Shown here piece by piece: positions 8,471-58,867 of a stretch of DNA of 64,000 nucleotides. This stretch comes from Verrucomicrobiota bacterium (GTDB taxonomy: Bacteria; Verrucomicrobiota; Verrucomicrobiia; Chthoniobacterales; UBA10450). Numbering within the stretch: position 1 is the stretch's first letter; every line of letters starts with the position of its first letter. A program made the translations under genes and the position numbers. The stretch lies in NCBI GenBank assembly GCA_003218395.1, contig QHNJ01000163.1:1676-65675 (forward strand). Direction: 5' to 3'. Under the pieces are notes generated by a model. It made no database searches. It was not told the origin of the DNA and worked only from the letters and a program-made list of their open reading frames with translations.

Positions 8471-9690
8471 ATGGCCAATGAAACGACGATGTCGATCGAA
8501 CAAGCGGAGCGCGTCGATCATCAGCTGGTCCGCGGCATCGGGATTCCAGCTCTCACCGCGAATATTGTCAGCTCCACAATCGGTGCGGGAATTTTCGTAA
8601 TTCCAGCGACAGTTGCCAGAGGACTAGGACCCGCCGCGCCACTCGCATTTGTCTGTTGTGCCGTTGCGATGGTGTTGTTCGTCACTTGTTTCGCGATCGC
8701 CGGCAGCCGCGTATCGTTGACCTCGCGAATTCAGTTGCCCTCGTCGTTCCATTCCTCGGCAGTCCCCTGATGCGCATTATCGTCATGCTCGCCGTTTATG
8801 GTTCGCTCGTACTAATCAACATCCGCGGCGTGCGCCAAGGCGCGGGTGCGGTGACCGTGATCACCGTGGCAAAGCTTCTGCCTCTGTTGCTGTTCGTTTG
8901 CGTAGGAATATTTTTCATTCACGCGCCGAATCTTTCTTGGATCGGTTGGCCCGGCAGCAAGTCGTTAGGTGACGCAGTGATTCTGCTGATTTTCGCCTTC
9001 GTAGGAATCGAGGTGGCGTTGATTCCGAGCGGCGAAGTGAAGAATCCGGCGCGCACCGTTCCGCGCTCGGCATATCTGGCGCTCGTCGTCACCACGGTCA
9101 TTTACATCCTGATCCAACTCGTAGCGCAGGGTACGCTCGGCGCCGATCTTGCGAATCATCCTGACGCACCTCTTGCCGAATCGGCGGCGACATTTCTCGG
9201 CAACTTAGGCCGCACGATTCTTCTGGCCGGAGCCACCATCTCCGCATTCGGATTTGTGACGAGCGACATTCTGAGTTCACCGCGAATGATCTTTGCTTTC
9301 GGCCGCGATGGCGCGTTGCCGCAGTTTTTCGCGCACGTTCATCCGCGCTATCGATCACCAGACGTCGCGATCATTACTTACGCGGTGTTGGCCTTTATGC
9401 TCTCGATCAGCGGCACCTTCGAACGGCTGGCGGTACTTTCGAACGTCGCCGTGTTGTTGATGTATCTGCTTTGCTGCGCCGGCTGCTGGGTCTTGGTGCA
9501 ACGCGATGTGCGCTCGGATGGTGAGCCCTTCAATTTCCCCGGAATGAAAATTGTGCCCGCGCTGGCGATTCTCGCGATCATCTGGATTCTAGCCCACGCC
9601 ACAGTTCGCGAATTTGTAGTGACTGGAATCGTGCTCGCGCTTGCTTCGATTGTGTATCTGATCCGCGGCCAACTTAGGCGGAAGTCGTAG
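8471..9690 (+). pseudogene. APC-family amino acid permease, split by an internal deletion plus frameshift near 8720-8730
   Basis: ORF 8471..8770 carries TM1-TM2 (SSTIGAGIFVIPA...AIAGSRVSLT). ORF 8656..9690, in frame +1, carries the remaining TMs. The GGxY...FG...GW segment expected between them is missing. Confidence 0.7.
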
Positions 9691-51010: not shown

Positions 51011-51799
51011 ATGCTCCGCATCGGCTGCGTCAAATATCTTAATGCCCGTCCGCTTATTCGAGGGTGGCTAGGCCCTGTGGAATTCGATCATCCGTCGACG
51101 CTCGGCAAACGACTGGCGAACGGTGAGTTCGATGTCGCGCTTGTTTCCAGTTTCGAATTCTTGCGCAACCCGATTTATCGAATCGTTGACGACGTTTCCA
51201 TTTCGTCGGTCGGATCGGTTTACAGCGTGGTTGTCGCGCATCGCGGCGACATTTCTAAGATCGAAGAGATCGAACTTGATCCTGCATCGAAAACTGCAGT
51301 CAATCTTCTGCGTTGCCTACTCGCCGAGCTGGGATTCAATTGGCGTTTAATCCGAGGTGTTCTGGGGAGCACAGGCTGCCAGCCTGTCGTGTCCGGCAGC
51401 CTGCCGGACACGACAGCGTGGCTTCTCATTGGCGATCAAGCCATTCGTTTCCGTCAGAAACACGCCGGTGAATTTGATTTCTGGGATCTCGGCGAACAAT
51501 GGCGGAAACTTGTTGATCTTCCGTTCGTTTACGCGCTTTGGCTTGTTCGCCCTGAAGTTATTGATCCAAAACAAATCGCGGAGCGCCTGCGTGTCTTGCG
51601 CGATGAAAACCTGACCAATCTCGACGAGTTAATTGCGGCCGAAAAAGAATCCGATCACCAATTCTGTTCCCGCTATTACCGCAAACATCTTCAATTCAGC
51701 CTTGGAGAAAAAGAAAAGGAAGGTCTGCGAACGTTCGCGTACCTCTGTGCAAAGCACGGTCTACTTCCGAAGCGCGATCTCGCGTTCGATCTCGTGTAG
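51011..51799 (+). CDS. mqnA: chorismate dehydratase MqnA-like protein carrying an in-frame palindromic repeat insertion
   Basis: LRIGCVKYLNARPLI.G..........P..L...L..GEFDVALVSSFEFLRNP.YRIV, ...LLIGDQAIRF and ...DLG..W......PFVYALW resemble MqnA (DUF178). The segment GSTGCQPVVSGSLPDTT is encoded by hairpin repeats. Confidence 0.72.
   Translation: MLRIGCVKYLNARPLIRGWLGPVEFDHPSTLGKRLANGEFDVALVSSFEFLRNPIYRIVDDVSISSVGSVYSVVVAHRGDISKIEEIELDPASKTAVNLLRCLLAELGFNWRLIRGVLGSTGCQPVVSGSLPDTTAWLLIGDQAIRFRQKHAGEFDFWDLGEQWRKLVDLPFVYALWLVRPEVIDPKQIAERLRVLRDENLTNLDELIAAEKESDHQFCSRYYRKHLQFSLGEKEKEGLRTFAYLCAKHGLLPKRDLAFDLV
51371..51416 (+). repeat. double-hairpin REP-like element inside the mqnA coding sequence
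   Basis: ACAGGCTG-C-CAGCCTGT (51371-51387) overlaps CTGTCGTGTCCGGCAG-C-CTGCCGGACACGACAG (51384-51416, a 16-bp perfect stem). Confidence 0.75.
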
Positions 51800-52900: not shown

Positions 52901-54543
52901 GTGCAATCCCGATGGATCGTTGCGCCGCCGGAGGAACTATACGGCGGACCAATTTCGTGGAATGAAATCTGTGGGTACGCATGTATCGCGCGGCTACTCA
53001 TGCGCAAAGGCTTCGCGAACGCGGAGGAAGTAGAAACGTTTCTGCGACCGCGTCTCAAATCATTAAGCGATCCGTCTTTGCTTCCAAACATGCAAGCGGC
53101 TGCGCAGCGAGTTCTTGCTGCGTTGGATCGGCATGAGCGGGTCGTTTTGTTCGGAGATTACGATGTCGATGGCGTGACCTCGATTGCACTCTTGACGGAG
53201 ATGTTGCGCGCTTACGGCGGCGCGCCGGAATTATTTTTGCCGCTGCGGATGGAGGAAGGTTACGGATTGAGTCCAGAAAGCGTCGAGCGGTGCCTGAAGC
53301 AGCATCATCCTCAACTCTTGATTGCAGTAGACTGCGGCACATCGTCCGTGAGTGAGATTGTCGATCTTACGCGACGCGGCGTGGACGTGATCGTGCTCGA
53401 TCACCATGAACCAAAATCGGCGTTGCCTGATTGCGTGGCGATCGTGAATCCGAAAATCGATCCGGAATCGCCGTTTCATTATCTGTGCAGTGTCGGAATC
53501 GTTTTTAAACTTTGTCACGCCCTTTTGAAAACGAGACCACTGTTTGATTTCGATCTTAAATCGAAACTCGATCTAGTGGCACTGGGCACAGTCGCGGACA
53601 TCGTCCCGTTGCGAGGGGAAAATCGGATTTTTGTCCGGCGTGGCGCGATTGAAATTACAAGACGGACGAGATCATTGGATTCCGACTCGGGCCGCGACTG
53701 AACGCAGCAGGACGATTGAGCACTGCTGAAAAGTCGTTGCAGCTTCTGCTTACCAAAGACGAAAACGAAGCCGGTGCGCTTGCTGACCTTCTCGACAAGC
53801 AAAATCGCGACCGGCAGGAAATCGAAAGGCAAGTGTTCATTGCAGCGGAAGAGCAGATCTGCCGTGATTTTGATCCGTTACGGGACGCGGCAATCGTGGT
53901 TGGAGCGCGCGAGTGGCATCCAGGCGTGGTGGGGATTGTGGCCTCGCGAATTTCGCGCAAATATCATCGGCCGACGATCGTGATCGGGTTCGAGGCAAAT
54001 GGCACTGGAAAAGGCAGTGGACGCAGCATCGAAGGGCTTAATCTGGTCGAAGCATTAGATCGCTGCGCTGAATCACTGGAAAAATTCGGCGGGCACGAAA
54101 TGGCGGCTGGCCTCACAATTCGCGAAGAGAAGATCGACGTGTTCGCGGCGGAATTTCGCCGGGTGACGCGCGAGCTGCTCTCGGATGATTACTTGCAACC
54201 GTGCCTCCGCATCGATCACGAGCTCGCGTTTTCGGAACTCACGGGCGATTTTCTCCAGTGGCACGAAATGCTCCAGCCATTCGGTAACGGGAATCCGGCG
54301 CCGCTTTTTTTTGCGCGCGAAGTCGAGCCGGTCATGCCGCCGCAGGAGGTAAAGGAGAAGCATCTCATTTTGCGCCTGCGCCAGGGGAATTACCATCGGC
54401 GCGCAGTTTACTTCGATTCGGCAAATCTCTCACTGCCGCCGGCGCCCTGGGACATTGCCTTTCGCATCCGCGCGGATGAATACGAAGGCGAAACTACGCT
54501 GGGCATGCGGATCGAGGCCGTGCGAAAAGCGGAGCAAATTTGA
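52901..54543 (+). pseudogene. recJ: single-stranded-DNA-specific exonuclease RecJ, interrupted (short deletion plus frameshift at about 53645-53660)
   Basis: ORF1 carries the DHH motifs (VVLFGDYDVDGVTS, ...IAVDCGTSS, ...VIVLDHHE, ...LDLVALGTVADIVPL.GENR). ORF2 resumes in frame +1 with (I)IGFRLGPRLNAAGRL...NRDRQEIE...GWHPGVVGIVASR. About 15-20 aa expected between them are absent. Confidence 0.8.
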
Positions 54544-54573
54544 ATGATCACGCCCACGAAAAGTAGAAAAAGG

Positions 54574-54620
54574 CTTCGCGGCAAGCTGCCGCGAACAACA
54601 GGCTGGCAGCCTGCGCTCCC
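54574..54620 (-). repeat. double-hairpin REP-like element (same family as in mqnA, opposite orientation) abutting the recG start codon
   Basis: TTCGCGGCA-AGC-TGCCGCGAA (54575-54595) plus ACAGGCTGGCAGCCTG (54598-54613). Its reverse complement shares CAGGCTGCCAGCCTGT 16/16 with the mqnA copy. The second stem differs by compensatory changes. Confidence 0.7.
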
Positions 54621-54623
54621 CAG

Positions 54624-57347
54624 ATGATCGGGATTTCGCAGTCGCTCGAAGACATCGCGTGGATCCCCCGACCGCGTCTGCTGGCGCTGAGACGGCTCGG
54701 TATCGGTACCGTGGAGGATTTGCTTACGCATTTTCCGCGCCGTCATGAGGATCGAACCGAGTTCCCGCATTTTCCACGCGAAGAAAGCGACGTTCCAATT
54801 TGTCTTTGCGGTGAAGTGATTAAAACGTCGCTGCGCCGTTTTGGCGGCTGGAAGAAGATCTTCGAAGCAACACTGCAAGAATCGCAGCCGAACGCGCTGA
54901 GTGAACCACTGGTGTGCCGTTGGTTCAATCTGCATTACGTGCAGAAGATGATCGCAACCGGGCAACGCCTGGTTGTGTTTGGCAGGCCGCGCCTGCGGGG
55001 CAAGAGAATTTGCATGGATCATCCGGAGTTCGAGGTCATCGAGAATGATAAAGAAATTTCGATCCATTTTCGGCGCATCACACCGATTTATCCAGCGACG
55101 GAAGGTCTTTCACAGCGCGTCTTGCGCAGCATTATTTACCGAGCGTTGAATGAAATTTCAGGCGCAGTATTGGAAACAATTGCGCCGAGGGGTTTGGTTC
55201 ATGGCACGCGGCGTGACGCGATCCGCGCGATCCATTTTCCGGAAAGCTGGGAAGCGCGTGATACTGCCCGGGAGCATCTGGTGCTCTCGGAATTTTTTGC
55301 GATGCAAATGCTGATCGCATCGCGACGCTCCGACGCATCCATCCGCGTCGGGTACGCGCACTGTGGAAATGGCGCGTTGCTCGACAAATTTCTTAAGGCG
55401 CTACCGTTCGAGTTAACCAGCGCGCAGTCCAAAGTGATTACGGAAATTCGGCGCGATCTCGCGGCACGCCAACCGATGAACCGTTTGTTGCAGGGAGACG
55501 TTGGCTCGGGAAAAACGGTCGTTGCCATAGCAGCGATGCTTCTTGCGATTGAAGCTGGATATCAGGCCGCGTTTATGGCGCCCACGCAAATTCTGGCGGA
55601 ACAGCATTATGATGTGCTGCGGCGCTGGCTCGAGCCGCTGGGGTTGTGCATCGCGCTGCGAACGGCCGCGCGTCAGGAAGACAACGCACCATTGCCTCTA
55701 TTCGTACTCAGCAAAACGCAACGCGCAAAGATTCCGGGGAGCACGCGCGTCTCGCGTGTTGGCGACGGCGTCGCGCCGTCGCGGACTTTTCCTGAAACAC
55801 AATCAGGCGAGGGGGCTGCGTATTCTCGCCGTCGGCTACCACATTTCGAAAAACCTTGGGCAATTTATGCGGTGAAGATCAGCACGAAGTCGCGGCGTTG
55901 TTTGTCACCAATCACGCGCACCATCGTTCTCGACGCGCTCCGACATTTTCATAACAAACGCTACGAATTGTTCGCGGCGTGCGTGATGCCTGATCATGTG
56001 CATTTTCTTATCCAGCCATGGCCGAAAGAAAGTGATGACGCGGGAAACGCAACATTCTGGCCGCTGAGCGAGCTGATCCACTCGATAAAATCATTTTCGG
56101 CTCACGAAATTAACGAGATCGACAAAAAGAAGGGGGCAGTTTGGGAACGCGAAAGATTTGATCGTTATGTGCGATCGGATCGCGATCTCCAGGAGAAGTT
56201 CCATTACATTCTTCGAAATCCATGGGATTCTGGAGTGGCACAGCAGAATGAGGATTATCCGTGGGTCTGGACGCAGGATGACGAGCGCCGCGAGGAAAGC
56301 TTGTTTCGGGGCGACGCCGAAATCAGCACGCGGGACGCGAGCGCTACCCAATCCGGAGCGTCGTTCGGGACGAACGACCCACAAATCGTCGTCGGCACGC
56401 ATGCGTTGCTGTACGAGAATCTTTCGTTCTCCAATCTCGGGCTCGTTGTTATCGACGAGCAGCATAAGTTCGGCGTTGCTCAACGCGCCCGATTAACCAC
56501 CCGCGAGCCGGCGCCTGACGTCCTCGTGATGACCGCCACGCCAATCCCGCGCACACTGACAATGACCATCTACGGCGATCTTGATGTTTCCGTTATCGAT
56601 GAGATGCCGCGCAACCGCGGGAAAATAATTACCGCCGTGCACGAAACGTCTAAGCTCGGCGAAGTCCTCAGTTTTTTGCGAGCACAACTGGAAGCGGGCC
56701 GCCAGCTCTACGTGATTTATCCGCTAATCGATGAAACCGAAAAACTGGACGTGAAAGCGGCGTCGGTGGAGTACGAGTTGTGGCGGGAGCGATTGCACCC
56801 GTATCGCTGCGAATTACTTCACGGCCGGATTCCGGCGCCGGAAAAACAGGAAATCATGGAACGGTTTCGACGCGGCGAGACAAATGCTTTGATCAGCACT
56901 ACGGTAATCGAAGTCGGTGTCGATGTCCCCAACGCGACCGTAATGCTGGTCGAAAACGCCGAGCGTTTCGGGTTGGCGCAACTCCATCAGCTTCGCGGCC
57001 GGATAGGTCGCGGTGGGCACAAGTCGTACTGCATTTTGTTAACATCCGACACTTCTAAGGAAACATCAGGAAAGCTCACTGTATTGGAAAAAACAAGCAA
57101 CGGTTTCGAAGTGGCGGAGGCTGATTGGGATTTACGCGGGCCGGGCGATTTGCTGGGCACAGCGCAAAGCGGCTTGCCAGTGCTGAAGATCGGCGACTTA
57201 AAAACCGACGCACATTTGATGCGACGAGCGCGCGCGACGGCGGTGTCGATCTTCGCGGCGGATCCGCGTCTAGAACTGCCTGAGAATCAACGTTTCCGGC
57301 GTTTAATTGTCGAACAACAGGGACGAACTTTTTCCAACGTTAGCTGA
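54624..57347 (+). CDS. recG: ATP-dependent DNA helicase RecG containing an in-frame RAYT (HUH Y1 transposase) insertion of about 200 aa
   Basis: Wedge/OB N-terminus. Motif I GDVGSGKT (nt 55494-). Motif II VIDEQH (nt 56449-). Then MTATPIPRTL, ...TTVIEVGVDVPNAT, ...QLHQLRGRIGRG and the TRG region. Motifs I and II are about 313 aa apart. Confidence 0.88.
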   Translation: MIGISQSLEDIAWIPRPRLLALRRLGIGTVEDLLTHFPRRHEDRTEFPHFPREESDVPICLCGEVIKTSLRRFGGWKKIFEATLQESQPNALSEPLVCRWFNLHYVQKMIATGQRLVVFGRPRLRGKRICMDHPEFEVIENDKEISIHFRRITPIYPATEGLSQRVLRSIIYRALNEISGAVLETIAPRGLVHGTRRDAIRAIHFPESWEARDTAREHLVLSEFFAMQMLIASRRSDASIRVGYAHCGNGALLDKFLKALPFELTSAQSKVITEIRRDLAARQPMNRLLQGDVGSGKTVVAIAAMLLAIEAGYQAAFMAPTQILAEQHYDVLRRWLEPLGLCIALRTAARQEDNAPLPLFVLSKTQRAKIPGSTRVSRVGDGVAPSRTFPETQSGEGAAYSRRRLPHFEKPWAIYAVKISTKSRRCLSPITRTIVLDALRHFHNKRYELFAACVMPDHVHFLIQPWPKESDDAGNATFWPLSELIHSIKSFSAHEINEIDKKKGAVWERERFDRYVRSDRDLQEKFHYILRNPWDSGVAQQNEDYPWVWTQDDERREESLFRGDAEISTRDASATQSGASFGTNDPQIVVGTHALLYENLSFSNLGLVVIDEQHKFGVAQRARLTTREPAPDVLVMTATPIPRTLTMTIYGDLDVSVIDEMPRNRGKIITAVHETSKLGEVLSFLRAQLEAGRQLYVIYPLIDETEKLDVKAASVEYELWRERLHPYRCELLHGRIPAPEKQEIMERFRRGETNALISTTVIEVGVDVPNATVMLVENAERFGLAQLHQLRGRIGRGGHKSYCILLTSDTSKETSGKLTVLEKTSNGFEVAEADWDLRGPGDLLGTAQSGLPVLKIGDLKTDAHLMRRARATAVSIFAADPRLELPENQRFRRLIVEQQGRTFSNVS
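55738..56348 (+). mobile_element. REPtron-like unit (RAYT with intact HUH and Tyr motifs, flanked by inverted GC-hairpin repeats) embedded in frame in recG
   Basis: RRRLPHFEKPWAIYAV...CVMPDHVHFLIQP...VWERERFDRYVRSDRDLQEKFHYILRNPWDSGV...DYPWVW. The flanking repeats are GGAGCACGCGCGTCTCGCGTGTTG (55738-55761) and CAGCACGCGGGACGCGAGCGCTACC (56324-56348). They match 18/23 as reverse complements. The right unit reads GGTAGC+hairpin on the minus strand. Confidence 0.72.
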
Positions 57348-58867
57348 TGAAAAACCTCGCCAAGTTTCTACTTTTTGTGCTGCTTGTAAGCGCGGGAATT
57401 TCGCTGCTCTACGATTACCGCCTCAAACGTGGGAACTTGGATTTGCTCCCGCGGCGGGCATCGGAAAATTACACGTTCGCTTCCGAGGCGGCAATCAATC
57501 CAAAACAAGTTGCGTCGCTAGAAGCATTGAATCAAGAACGGCGCGCGCTGGTGAAGAGCGTGATTCCTTCGGTAGTAGCGGTGAAGACCTCCAAGAAGAT
57601 CGGGATTCGCCGGCAGTACGGGCTCGATCCATTCGAGTTTTTCTTCGGCAACCCGAGGGGCCAGTTTCGCAGCCCGCGCGAGGAGGCGCTAGTGCAAAAT
57701 TCGCTTGGCTCCGGGGTGATCGTTACCAATGAGGGACACATCATCACCAACAACCACGTAGTCGATCAGGTGGACGAGATCGAGGTGCAATTGAGCGATG
57801 GCCGCACGAAGAAAGCGTTGTTGGTAGGCGCGGATTCTCAGATCGATTTGGCTGTGCTCAAGATCGATGATCCCGGTGTTAAGCCGCTCAAGCTGGCTGA
57901 TTCCGATACCGTGCAGGCCGGCGATTTTGTTCTCGCCATCGGGAATCCATTTGGATTCGAGGAGACCGTGACCGATGGGATCATTAGCTCAAAGGGCCGG
58001 CCGGGTCGCTCCGATTATTTCGGTGATCTCCTGCAGACGAACGCGGCGATCAATCCAGGCAACAGCGGCGGGCCGTTGATCAATTTGCGCGGTGAAGTTA
58101 TCGGTATTAATACTGCGATCGCCTCTACCACTGGCGGCTCGCAAGGGGTCGGCTTTGCTATTCCGTCAAACACAGTTCGCACGGCGCTTGAAAGCTTATT
58201 GAAGCAAGGGCGAATTATTCGCGGTTATCTTGGGATCCAGGCGCGTGCGGCGCAACCGGGGCAAAGAGGCGCCGATAACGAAGGCGTAGTGGTTGAGGAA
58301 ATACTTCCGGGATCTCCCGCAGCCGAGGCGCAACTGCAGCAGGGAGACGTTATTCGCAAGTTCGACGGGCGCGACGTAAAGAATTTCAATGTGCTCAGGA
58401 GTCTCGTGTCCCAGACCGAGTTAAACAAAAAAGTTGAGTTGGAAATAGAGCGCGGCGGCAAGCCGATCAAGGTGACGGCGCAGATCAGAGAACAGCCGGT
58501 TGATTATCAGACGTCTGGCACTTTGCCTCGACGATCACAGCCACAGCCGCAGGTTCCAAGCCAACCGGATCAAGAGTCGACGAGTGGTCCGTTTGCTTCG
58601 ATCCACGTGGGCGATTTAACTCCAGAAATGGCACGCGAGCTCGATCTGCCCAGCAATGTGCGAGGCGTTGTGGTTACCAATGTCGATCCTGACAGCGGTG
58701 TGGCCGAATTGCAAAAGGGCGACGTGATCGAGGAAATCAATCAGCAACCCATCGCATCAGTTTCGGACTACAACAAAATCGCCGGGTCACTGGATCCCAG
58801 TCAAGCCCAAGTCCTGTCGATTTGCCGGCATCGGATGCGTTCGTTTCTAGTCTTGCGACCGCGCTAG
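57347..58867 (+). CDS. HtrA/DegP/DegQ-family periplasmic serine protease with two PDZ domains
   Basis: N-terminal TM or signal. Catalytic triad context: GSGVIVTNEGHIITNNHVV (His), ...DLAVLKI (Asp), ...GNSGGPLINLRGEVIGINTAI (Ser). Two PDZ-like regions (GYLGIQ..., VRGVVVTNVDPDSG...GDVI). Confidence 0.9.
   Translation: MKNLAKFLLFVLLVSAGISLLYDYRLKRGNLDLLPRRASENYTFASEAAINPKQVASLEALNQERRALVKSVIPSVVAVKTSKKIGIRRQYGLDPFEFFFGNPRGQFRSPREEALVQNSLGSGVIVTNEGHIITNNHVVDQVDEIEVQLSDGRTKKALLVGADSQIDLAVLKIDDPGVKPLKLADSDTVQAGDFVLAIGNPFGFEETVTDGIISSKGRPGRSDYFGDLLQTNAAINPGNSGGPLINLRGEVIGINTAIASTTGGSQGVGFAIPSNTVRTALESLLKQGRIIRGYLGIQARAAQPGQRGADNEGVVVEEILPGSPAAEAQLQQGDVIRKFDGRDVKNFNVLRSLVSQTELNKKVELEIERGGKPIKVTAQIREQPVDYQTSGTLPRRSQPQPQVPSQPDQESTSGPFASIHVGDLTPEMARELDLPSNVRGVVVTNVDPDSGVAELQKGDVIEEINQQPIASVSDYNKIAGSLDPSQAQVLSICRHRMRSFLVLRPR

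Follow-up and report, generated by a model that had tools for sequence, protein, structure and literature searches.

An intact REP-associated tyrosine transposase and its flanking REPs in frame within recG of a Verrucomicrobiota bacterium

The recG gene on contig QHNJ01000163.1 of a Verrucomicrobiota bacterium (order Chthoniobacterales, assembly GCA_003218395.1) contains an intact REP-associated tyrosine transposase (RAYT) flanked by inverted repetitive extragenic palindromes (REPs), all in the reading frame of the RecG helicase. The window analyzed is the whole 64,000-nucleotide stretch from contig positions 1,676 to 65,675, and all coordinates below are window positions. The usual description of a RAYT is that of a domesticated transposase, extragenic and present in one copy, whose role and mode of persistence are debated. 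REPtrons are RAYT/TnpAREP genes flanked by inverted REPs, as in Escherichia coli YafM/TnpAREP (Nunvar 2010; Ton-Hoang 2012). The block at 55736-56349, here called the unit, is probably a REPtron-like, coding-compatible and selfish REP/RAYT element that exploits host genes both to be expressed and to be sheltered. Its family, largely undescribed so far, is translated within numerous housekeeping genes of soil Verrucomicrobia.

Anatomy and identity of the unit

The initial annotation proposed an intact RAYT with its REPs in frame within recG, and profile matches, fold, catalytic residues, hairpin ends with covariation and a continuous frame all bear this out. The recG open reading frame (ORF) of 907 aa is open as then described. 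Its product scores 775 bits (cutoff 718) with the NCBIfam RecG equivalog NF008168, in a match split into two stretches; it contains the Pfam domains RecG_wedge, DEAD, Helicase_C and RecG_dom3_C and matches Thermotoga maritima RecG (1GM5) with E = 4e-136. Helicase motif I (GDVGSGKT, starting at 55494) and the DEQH motif (starting at 56454) are 313 aa apart, against the roughly 100 aa that the initial annotation gave for characterized RecG proteins. Query residues 335-582 align with residues 440-470 of 1GM5; this puts about 215 extra residues between motif Ia (PTQILAEQHY) and VVGTHAL and implies a GDVGSGKT-to-DEQH interval of about 94 aa in T. maritima RecG. The extra block of about 614 bp lies between these same two motifs. 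The whole unit, arms included, is an ORF with a length that is a multiple of three; no stop codon occurs across it and the RecG frame resumes at DPQIVVGTHAL, as first reported. The parts of the gene, all on the + strand, are as follows (dN/dS, the ratio of nonsynonymous to synonymous substitution rates, was calculated by region, like the synonymous rate dS itself, from 32 in-frame recG loci).

54624-57347, +: recG ORF, 907 aa, open through the inserted unit; NF008168, Pfam and 1GM5 match in two aligned blocks
54624-55706, +: RecG N-terminal part with wedge, motif I (GDVGSGKT at 55494) and motif Ia (PTQILAEQHY), ending ...ALRTAARQEDNAPLPLF
55707-55735, +: variable host loop left of the unit (VLSKTQRAKIP), differing in length and sequence among alleles
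55736-55790, +: left arm (REP) with GGGGAGC (a GGAG variant of GTAG) and two hairpins, translated as GSTRVSRVGDGVAPSRTF
55743-55749 / 55753-55759, +: left-arm hairpin 1, loop TCT
55762-55770 / 55774-55782, +: left-arm hairpin 2, loop TCG
55791-55820, +: spacer between left arm and RAYT core, predicted disordered; dN/dS 0.96, neutral
55821-56270, +: RAYT core (TnpAREP-type HUH/Y1 transposase), RecG residues 400-549, from profiles, fold, catalytic residues and dN/dS of 0.088
56271-56292, +: spacer between RAYT core and right arm, of low predicted confidence (pLDDT); dN/dS 0.37
56293-56349, +: right arm (inverted REP) with two hairpins and GCTACCC, translated as ...FRGDAEISTRDASATQ
56303-56311 / 56315-56323, +: right-arm hairpin 2', loop CGA, with one mismatch and one wobble pair
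56326-56332 / 56336-56342, +: right-arm hairpin 1', loop GGA, with one A-A mismatch
56350-56378, +: variable host loop right of the unit (SGASFGTND); dN/dS of this right linker 0.81
56379-57347, +: RecG C-terminal part from PQIVVGTHAL, with DEQH at 56454, Helicase_C and domain 3

Anatomy and family membership are observed directly. The excised insert matches the NCBIfam model NF047646 (REP_Tyr_transpos) over positions 4-145 of 146 with 80.3 bits at a cutoff of 80, a marginal pass because the whole 907-aa protein scores 76.9 bits. Pfam Y1_Tnp gives 29.2 bits on the insert (cutoff 23), and the IS200 model NF033573 (transpos_IS200) gives 23.3 bits, under its cutoff of 55. Both catalytic motifs are intact, as claimed at the outset: the HUH motif (H-V-H) at 55995-56003, within PDHVH at 55989-56003, and the catalytic tyrosine at 56205-56207, within FHYILRNP. 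An AlphaFold2 model of the 204-aa unit has pLDDT of 80-96 over core residues of about 40-185 and disordered ends. Its top Foldseek match is 4ER8_A (E = 1e-6, probability 1.0, TM score 0.65 on the target), the E. coli TnpAREP bound to a REP hairpin; IS200/IS605 TnpA structures (ISDra2, IS608 and IS200) follow. A phmmer search of the PDB, which compares sequence only, gave TnpAREP no significant score (E = 0.88) with the insert as query.

The arms form the ends of the unit. The initial annotation placed imperfect inverted repeats at 55738-55761 and 56324-56348; they are real and longer, spanning 55736-55778 and 56307-56349 with 33/43 positions complementary. The inverted repeat scores 18, whereas 200 codon shuffles averaged 9.3 and never exceeded 14.5. 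Also present as noted are the perfect hairpin GCGACGGCG-TCG-CGCCGTCGC at 55762-55782 and, at the right end, GCTACCC, which reads GGGTAGC on the complementary strand, that is, the GTAG tag. As single-stranded DNA the left arm folds at -20.8 kcal/mol (z = -3.2). Comparison of the recG copy with copies at a second locus, between T2SSE genes (below), locates the ends: nucleotide homology starts at GGG(G/T)AGC and stops at GCGCTACC, the outer ends of the arms, with arms that are almost invariant and an interior rich in synonymous changes.

Across 80 loci in named genomes all units share one end architecture, a G(T/G)AG tag followed by a 7-bp and then a 9-bp hairpin, both with 3-nt loops, the right end being the mirror image of the left. 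The GGAG form of the tag occurs in 15/45 arms. Covariation upholds the hairpins of both arms: 97.9% of cells are paired in the left arm, with compensatory changes in 11/16 pairs, and 94.8% in the right, with compensatory changes in 13/16. For each arm none of 500 shuffles was as good, and slid registers gave at most 53% pairing. A target-site motif was not definable at these junctions, the base ahead of GGG being C or T (codons P, S, L) and the flanks otherwise variable.

Host genes, turnover and solo REPs

Relatives of the unit are encoded in 419 stretches of GTDB species genomes, and the best 80 of the 419, which we examined, are nearly all from Chthoniobacterales. The window sequence itself is locus L009, and a near-identical contig in a separate assembly is L144. 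At about 50 loci, representing about as many species of Chthoniobacterales, the unit lies in recG and shares its frame with the RecG sequence on either side; identity of the RecG flanks runs from 100% down to about 51%, and that of the units is 59-78%. This breadth refutes a very recent in-frame hit in the form in which it was first considered. Frame breaks occur in three recG exceptions (L050, L062 and L077), all metagenome-assembled genomes (MAGs) of the MFD series, and may be sequencing or assembly errors. More than 120 protein clusters of 77-99% identity from JGI, ENA and NCBI assemblies have the same architecture of about 900 aa. JGI names them 'RecG-like helicase/REP element-mobilizing transposase RayT', so annotation pipelines have already seen the domain pair.

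In-frame occupancy of many host genes is likewise observed. The unit lies in frame in alanyl-tRNA synthetase (AlaRS, alaS), threonyl-tRNA synthetase (ThrRS, thrS) and methionine synthase (MetH, metH). A profile search of 1.84 billion representative proteins returned many further long proteins with an internal match, the HUH and Y motifs kept and repeated arm-like peptides alongside. By Pfam their hosts are AlaRS, RecG, PriA, valyl-tRNA synthetase (ValRS), PurH, DnaK, BirA, a glycyl-radical enzyme and DNA methyltransferases, and the named sources of such host proteins include Verrucomicrobiota, Phycisphaeraceae and Rubrobacteraceae. Nested in-frame copies were seen in PriA (P0281/P0388; Verrucomicrobiota, 48 contigs), in ValRS (Phycisphaeraceae, Planctomycetota), in a DNA methyltransferase (Rubrobacteraceae, Actinomycetota) and in DnaK, a set that includes P0309, P0321 and P0400; these copies make the phenomenon wider than Chthoniobacterales.

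Many free-standing proteins of about 217 aa, 75-84% identical to the insert core, include the peptides of both arms. Their genes are found between the members of a tandem pair of paralogous T2SSE (GspE/PilB-like) ATPase genes (L001-L008, L014, L020, L021, L023, L037 and L041). Overlaps at both ends, of the start codon with the stop of the gene upstream (TGATG) and of the stop codon with the start of the gene downstream, make these copies passengers of a secretion or pilus operon to which their translation is coupled.

The recG site is polymorphic. A metagenome scan with the RecG junction from which the unit had been removed found many close relatives without the RAYT (flanks 76-89% identical). 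The same RecG loop occurs empty (for example PLPLF-SGDDDA-QIIVGTHAL in L091), with degenerate remnants (L107 and L110), with a solo left-arm remnant (L089/L119, whose flanks are closest to the window), with a solo right arm (L127), with a RAYT-less arm doublet (L097), and with full units of at least three types, including doublet-flanked ones (L064, L069, L072 and L073) and ones with a different arm sequence (L161 and L162). A single ancient fixed fusion was rejected in view of these many empty and partly occupied alleles among close relatives. Of the interpretations first offered, a tolerated surface-loop insertion is the closest to this evidence: the loop is hypervariable and found in every state from empty to solo arm, doublet and full unit.

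In one unit variant, seen in recG of L064, L069, L072, L073 and L076 and in metH of L082, a REPIN-like doublet of left and right arm stands on either side of the RAYT, and all of it is translated. In the recG loci of L064-L076 the RecG flanks are about 85% identical to the window and the RAYT only about 57%, which suggests replacement at the same site. L076 (JBLMXH010000102.1) is binned as Nitrospirota; its recG N-terminal part is 84% identical to the window, it carries a doublet-type unit, and it is probably a mis-binned Udaeobacter contig.

Neighbor-joining trees were made for flanks and for units without support values, so counts of gain and loss are qualitative only. In the flank tree occupied alleles are scattered among unoccupied ones within Chthoniobacterales, and no RecG more distant than these is occupied. 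The unit tree is not sorted by host gene: the branches of recG copies also contain free copies and copies from the T2SSE locus, and at least three unit lineages occur at one alaS site, one of them grouping with thrS units. At this qualitative level, sites have undergone repeated gains, losses or replacements.

Arms also occur without a transposase. Arm-profile searches of 1.26 Mb of related loci found 173 arms beside RAYTs and 28 elsewhere, the latter often left-plus-right doublets and some of them in frame, for example at a second alaS site. Three alaS genes (L058, L068 and L070) have a RAYT unit and, at this second, upstream site, in-frame arm sequence with no RAYT. In L058 this is a left-plus-right doublet (9506-9613); in L068 (693-746) and L070 (5092-5145) only the left arm was detected.

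No further arm of the type flanking the RAYT was found in the 64-kb window. A second REP type of the same architecture, here type C, was found twice (2 matches against 0.00 expected), which brings the REP-like arms in the window to four. A generic scan for G(G/T)AG followed by two hairpins is not specific alone, with 11 matches against a chance expectation of 9.2. The type-C copies are:

54574-54621, -: solo REP in the recJ-recG spacer, ending 2 nt before the recG ATG; GGGGAGC, a 6-bp hairpin (CAGGCT-GCC-AGCCTG) and a 9-bp hairpin; z = -2.6 as single-stranded DNA
51366-51411, +: REP in frame in an mqnA-like gene (ORF 51011-51799), encoding GSTGCQPVVSGSLPDT; GGAGC, CAGGCT-GCC-AGCCTG and a 9-bp hairpin

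The mqnA-like product matches PF02621 at 142 bits and the chorismate dehydratase 7AHR. Alignment with 7AHR suggests that the REP replaces native residues, for a net gain of only about 5 aa. Peptides of the GSTGCQPVVSGSLPDT type also flank the RAYT in recG of L161/L162. The copy in the spacer could influence how recG translation is initiated or how stable the mRNA is. At the equivalent position in L010 and L017 lies an arm of the other type, the one that flanks the RAYT.

Directly upstream of recG, recJ is disrupted as first noted, being split into ORFs at 52901-53701 and 53716-54543 where the orthologue in L011 is a single 576-aa ORF. Against L011, about 20 codons (...VGLHKLMQVAGVRPPILPEH...) are absent and the frame shifts just ahead of IGFRLGPRLNAAGR. 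Either a genuine pseudogene or an error in the assembly of the MAG could explain the split.

Selection and competing explanations

Regional substitution rates within recG were as follows.

RecG N-terminal part: dN/dS 0.167, dS about 1.6
RecG C-terminal part: dN/dS 0.115, dS about 1.7
RAYT core: dN/dS 0.088, dS about 2.1
Left / right arms: dN/dS 0.38 / 0.75, dS 0.33 / 0.29
Spacers and linkers beside the arms: dN/dS 0.37-0.96, dS about 1.0

The dS of the arms (0.29-0.33) is five-fold below that elsewhere (about 1.6-2.1), and arm dN/dS is not informative because dS there is itself constrained. The wider linker region, residues 336-371, has a dN/dS of 0.21. Whatever the context, the HUH histidines are kept in 80/82 and 82/82 units and the tyrosine in 79/81. 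A catalytic residue is lost in four copies (the tyrosine is replaced by His in L012 and L070, and the first histidine of HUH by Gln in L039 and by Tyr in L068), which fits occasional inactivation of single copies, or sequencing error. The selection observed therefore has three layers: the transposase is constrained as a protein, its ends are constrained as nucleotide sequence, and the linkers are relaxed to neutral. This is the pattern of a working transposase with working ends rather than of a decaying relic or a simple loop.

Because the unit lies in a loop of RecG and is wholly an ORF, RecG would be translated with the RAYT domain inside it. The product would begin with the N-terminal part of RecG and end with its C-terminal part, and between them the RAYT would form a folded domain with a disordered peptide, encoded by an arm, on each side, presumably as one 907-aa protein in which RecG keeps its function and the transposase is enzymatically active. 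The family consists of coding-compatible REP/RAYT elements of Chthoniobacterales and other bacteria of the PVC (Planctomycetes-Verrucomicrobia-Chlamydiae) superphylum. Its elements have no expression signals of their own and are nested in frame or operon-coupled, and so would borrow host transcription and translation. Residence in an essential gene would shelter the element, since changes at such a site are viable, with the host gene still functional, only if they keep the frame.

A route of movement may be drawn by analogy with TnpAREP, which binds the hairpin, uses GTAG as a guide-like motif and cleaves at CT/CA through a Tyr-5'P intermediate (PMC8266576, Corneloup 2021). The RAYT domain, tethered by the disordered linkers that the arms encode, would bind the folded single-stranded hairpins of its own ends; a GTAG-type tag would serve as guide, and DNA would be cut and rejoined through a Tyr-5'-phosphate intermediate. 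The outcome would be excision, reinsertion and the spread of solo REPs and doublets. Tethering to RecG or PriA might also deliver the RAYT to the single-stranded DNA at forks that the enzyme needs.

Several points weigh against a mobile selfish element. In the window copy the left tag is GGAG rather than GTAG, and the stems of the right arm contain two mismatches and fold only weakly (-13 kcal/mol, z = -1.4). For these reasons the window copy may be less mobile than the family consensus, perhaps immobile. The density of REPs is low, with 28 solo arms in 1.26 Mb of related loci and no additional arm of the RAYT-flanking type in the 64 kb of the window. The trees that speak for turnover lack support values, and the full-length AlphaFold2 model of the fusion (mean pLDDT 47.6, pTM 0.30) is too poor to place the domain on RecG, its alignment holding close relatives only. 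Strong protein-level constraint together with a long stay in recG would also fit a host-beneficial domain.

This last point leads to the foremost alternative, a domesticated fusion in which RecG would have gained an HUH nuclease as a functional domain that benefits the host, for instance in hairpin or flap processing at stalled forks. The RAYT core is constrained like RecG itself (dN/dS 0.088), its catalytic residues are conserved, the unit persists in recG across Chthoniobacterales, and another fork helicase, PriA, hosts it too. However, the unit is equally in frame in AlaRS, ThrRS, ValRS, MetH, PurH, DnaK and BirA, proteins unconnected with DNA processing; loops are empty in close relatives; nucleotide-level conservation and compensatory changes in the arms would be superfluous for a protein function; and the linkers are neutral. 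We consider a domesticated fusion unlikely, and with it the genuine HUH-nuclease/SF2-helicase fusion raised in the initial annotation.

An inert relic, that is, an old insertion tolerated in a permissive loop with transposase and ends inactive, would account for the GGAG tag and weakened right arm of the window copy and for the few units without an HUH histidine or the tyrosine (L012, L039, L068 and L070), and the loop is clearly permissive. Yet a relic should drift, and the core has a dN/dS of 0.088, the arms have a five-fold reduced dS and compensatory substitutions with neutral spacers between, and the recG site turns over. We regard this explanation as improbable.

Removal of the insert before RecG matures, by intein-like protein splicing, RNA splicing or translational bypass, is brought to mind by the in-frame niche in housekeeping genes, which is like that of inteins, and by terminal inverted repeats able to pair in mRNA. 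An intein or a ribozyme was sought and rejected: Pfam and NCBIfam gave no Hint/intein domain match, and Rfam gave no RNA family in 54500-57500. The junction residues are variable and neutral, and the strict frame and lack of stops favor read-through, since removal at the RNA level would need neither. Removal in any form is thus very improbable. An assembly chimera or frameshift artefact may practically be dismissed: the window is from a curated MAG whose adjacent recJ has a frame-breaking lesion, but independent projects have yielded the in-frame architecture in >120 protein clusters and in the genomes of about 50 species, and the near-identical contig is from a separate assembly.

For the selfish REP/RAYT element that we prefer, a broader proposal can be made, on which our own judgement is evenly balanced. 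It is that such units represent a distinct lifestyle of transposable elements: autonomous, fully translatable REP/RAYT units that are in-frame passengers of essential proteins (RecG, PriA, AlaRS, ThrRS, ValRS, MetH, DnaK, PurH and BirA) in Verrucomicrobiota and at least some Planctomycetota and Actinomycetota. They would occupy an intein-like niche without splicing, with the host protein tethering an active single-stranded DNA transposase.

Such a lifestyle would offer a testable answer to how REPs and RAYTs persist in compact genomes, through expression and protection by essential host genes. The recG loop, with empty, solo-arm, doublet and full-unit states at one site, provides a natural allele series for the study of REP/RAYT gain and loss. 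For annotation, such proteins are now labeled hypothetical, given dual names or discarded as fusion errors. For protein engineering, the family maps loops of essential enzymes that tolerate an insert of about 200 residues with a folded domain of about 150.

Comparison with known systems

The unit resembles REPtrons in its RAYT-type HUH/Y1 transposase, its flanking inverted GTAG-tagged hairpin REPs, and the solo REPs and doublets (REPIN-like) found elsewhere. Its short, near-perfect palindromic hairpins with 3-nt loops are also like group 3 REPs (PMC8266576). Classical REPtrons are extragenic and have their own gene boundaries, whereas the arms of the recG unit are in the reading frame and the RAYT is an internal segment of a host protein, without a start or stop of its own. 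The recG unit further differs from them in having two hairpins per arm and a seemingly low REP copy number. The arms agree with the definition of a REP as a short, GC-rich, tagged palindrome of maintained structure; they depart from it in location and number, the arms and the mqnA REP being intragenic and translated, and only four REP-like arms being present in 64 kb.

Palindromic repeats that are intragenic and translated were reportedly described by Ogata in 2000 as Rickettsia palindromic elements (RPEs). Intragenic REPs of the GTAG/CGTC class are known as well, the GTAG type having its highest count in the verrucomicrobium Opitutus terrae, many of them in repair genes (PMC3733652, Di Nocera 2013). 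RPEs and intragenic REPs share with our family the placement of palindromes in frame in functional genes, many of replication or repair, to which they add short peptides, and the solo REP in mqnA is exactly such an intragenic repeat. These repeats are short and non-autonomous, whereas in the recG unit the transposase gene itself is nested in frame and contributes a folded domain of about 150 aa.

Inteins are alike in being selfish, in frame in conserved housekeeping proteins, nuclease-bearing, expressed from the host gene, and present or absent among close relatives. Unlike them, the unit has no Hint domain and no conserved splice-junction residues (in inteins, C/S/T nucleophiles at both junctions and a terminal HN); the sequence is ...P|GS... 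at one junction and ...ATQ|... at the other, with variable residues around them. Inteins home at double-strand breaks, whereas any mobility of the unit would, by analogy, be of the single-strand HUH type. TnpA of the IS200/IS605 family has the same fold family and subterminal hairpins as ends, and differs in that the recG insert stays below the cutoff of NF033573 (23.3 of 55 bits).

Among TnpAREP proteins, the motifs of the recG unit (DHVH, YILRNP and a length of about 217 aa) fit the subclass 2.7 pattern of Quentin 2018 (PMC6006769), where REPs inserted in frame within tnpAREP genes were also noted. Since TnpA proteins of unexpected length were set aside there as fusions or misannotations, the analysis in that survey did not extend to nested RAYTs. 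Our literature search, to which subscription journals were external so that an earlier description is possible, returned no account of a RAYT gene nested in frame in host proteins. Translated intragenic REPs are known; what seems to be new is the transposase itself in frame within a host protein.

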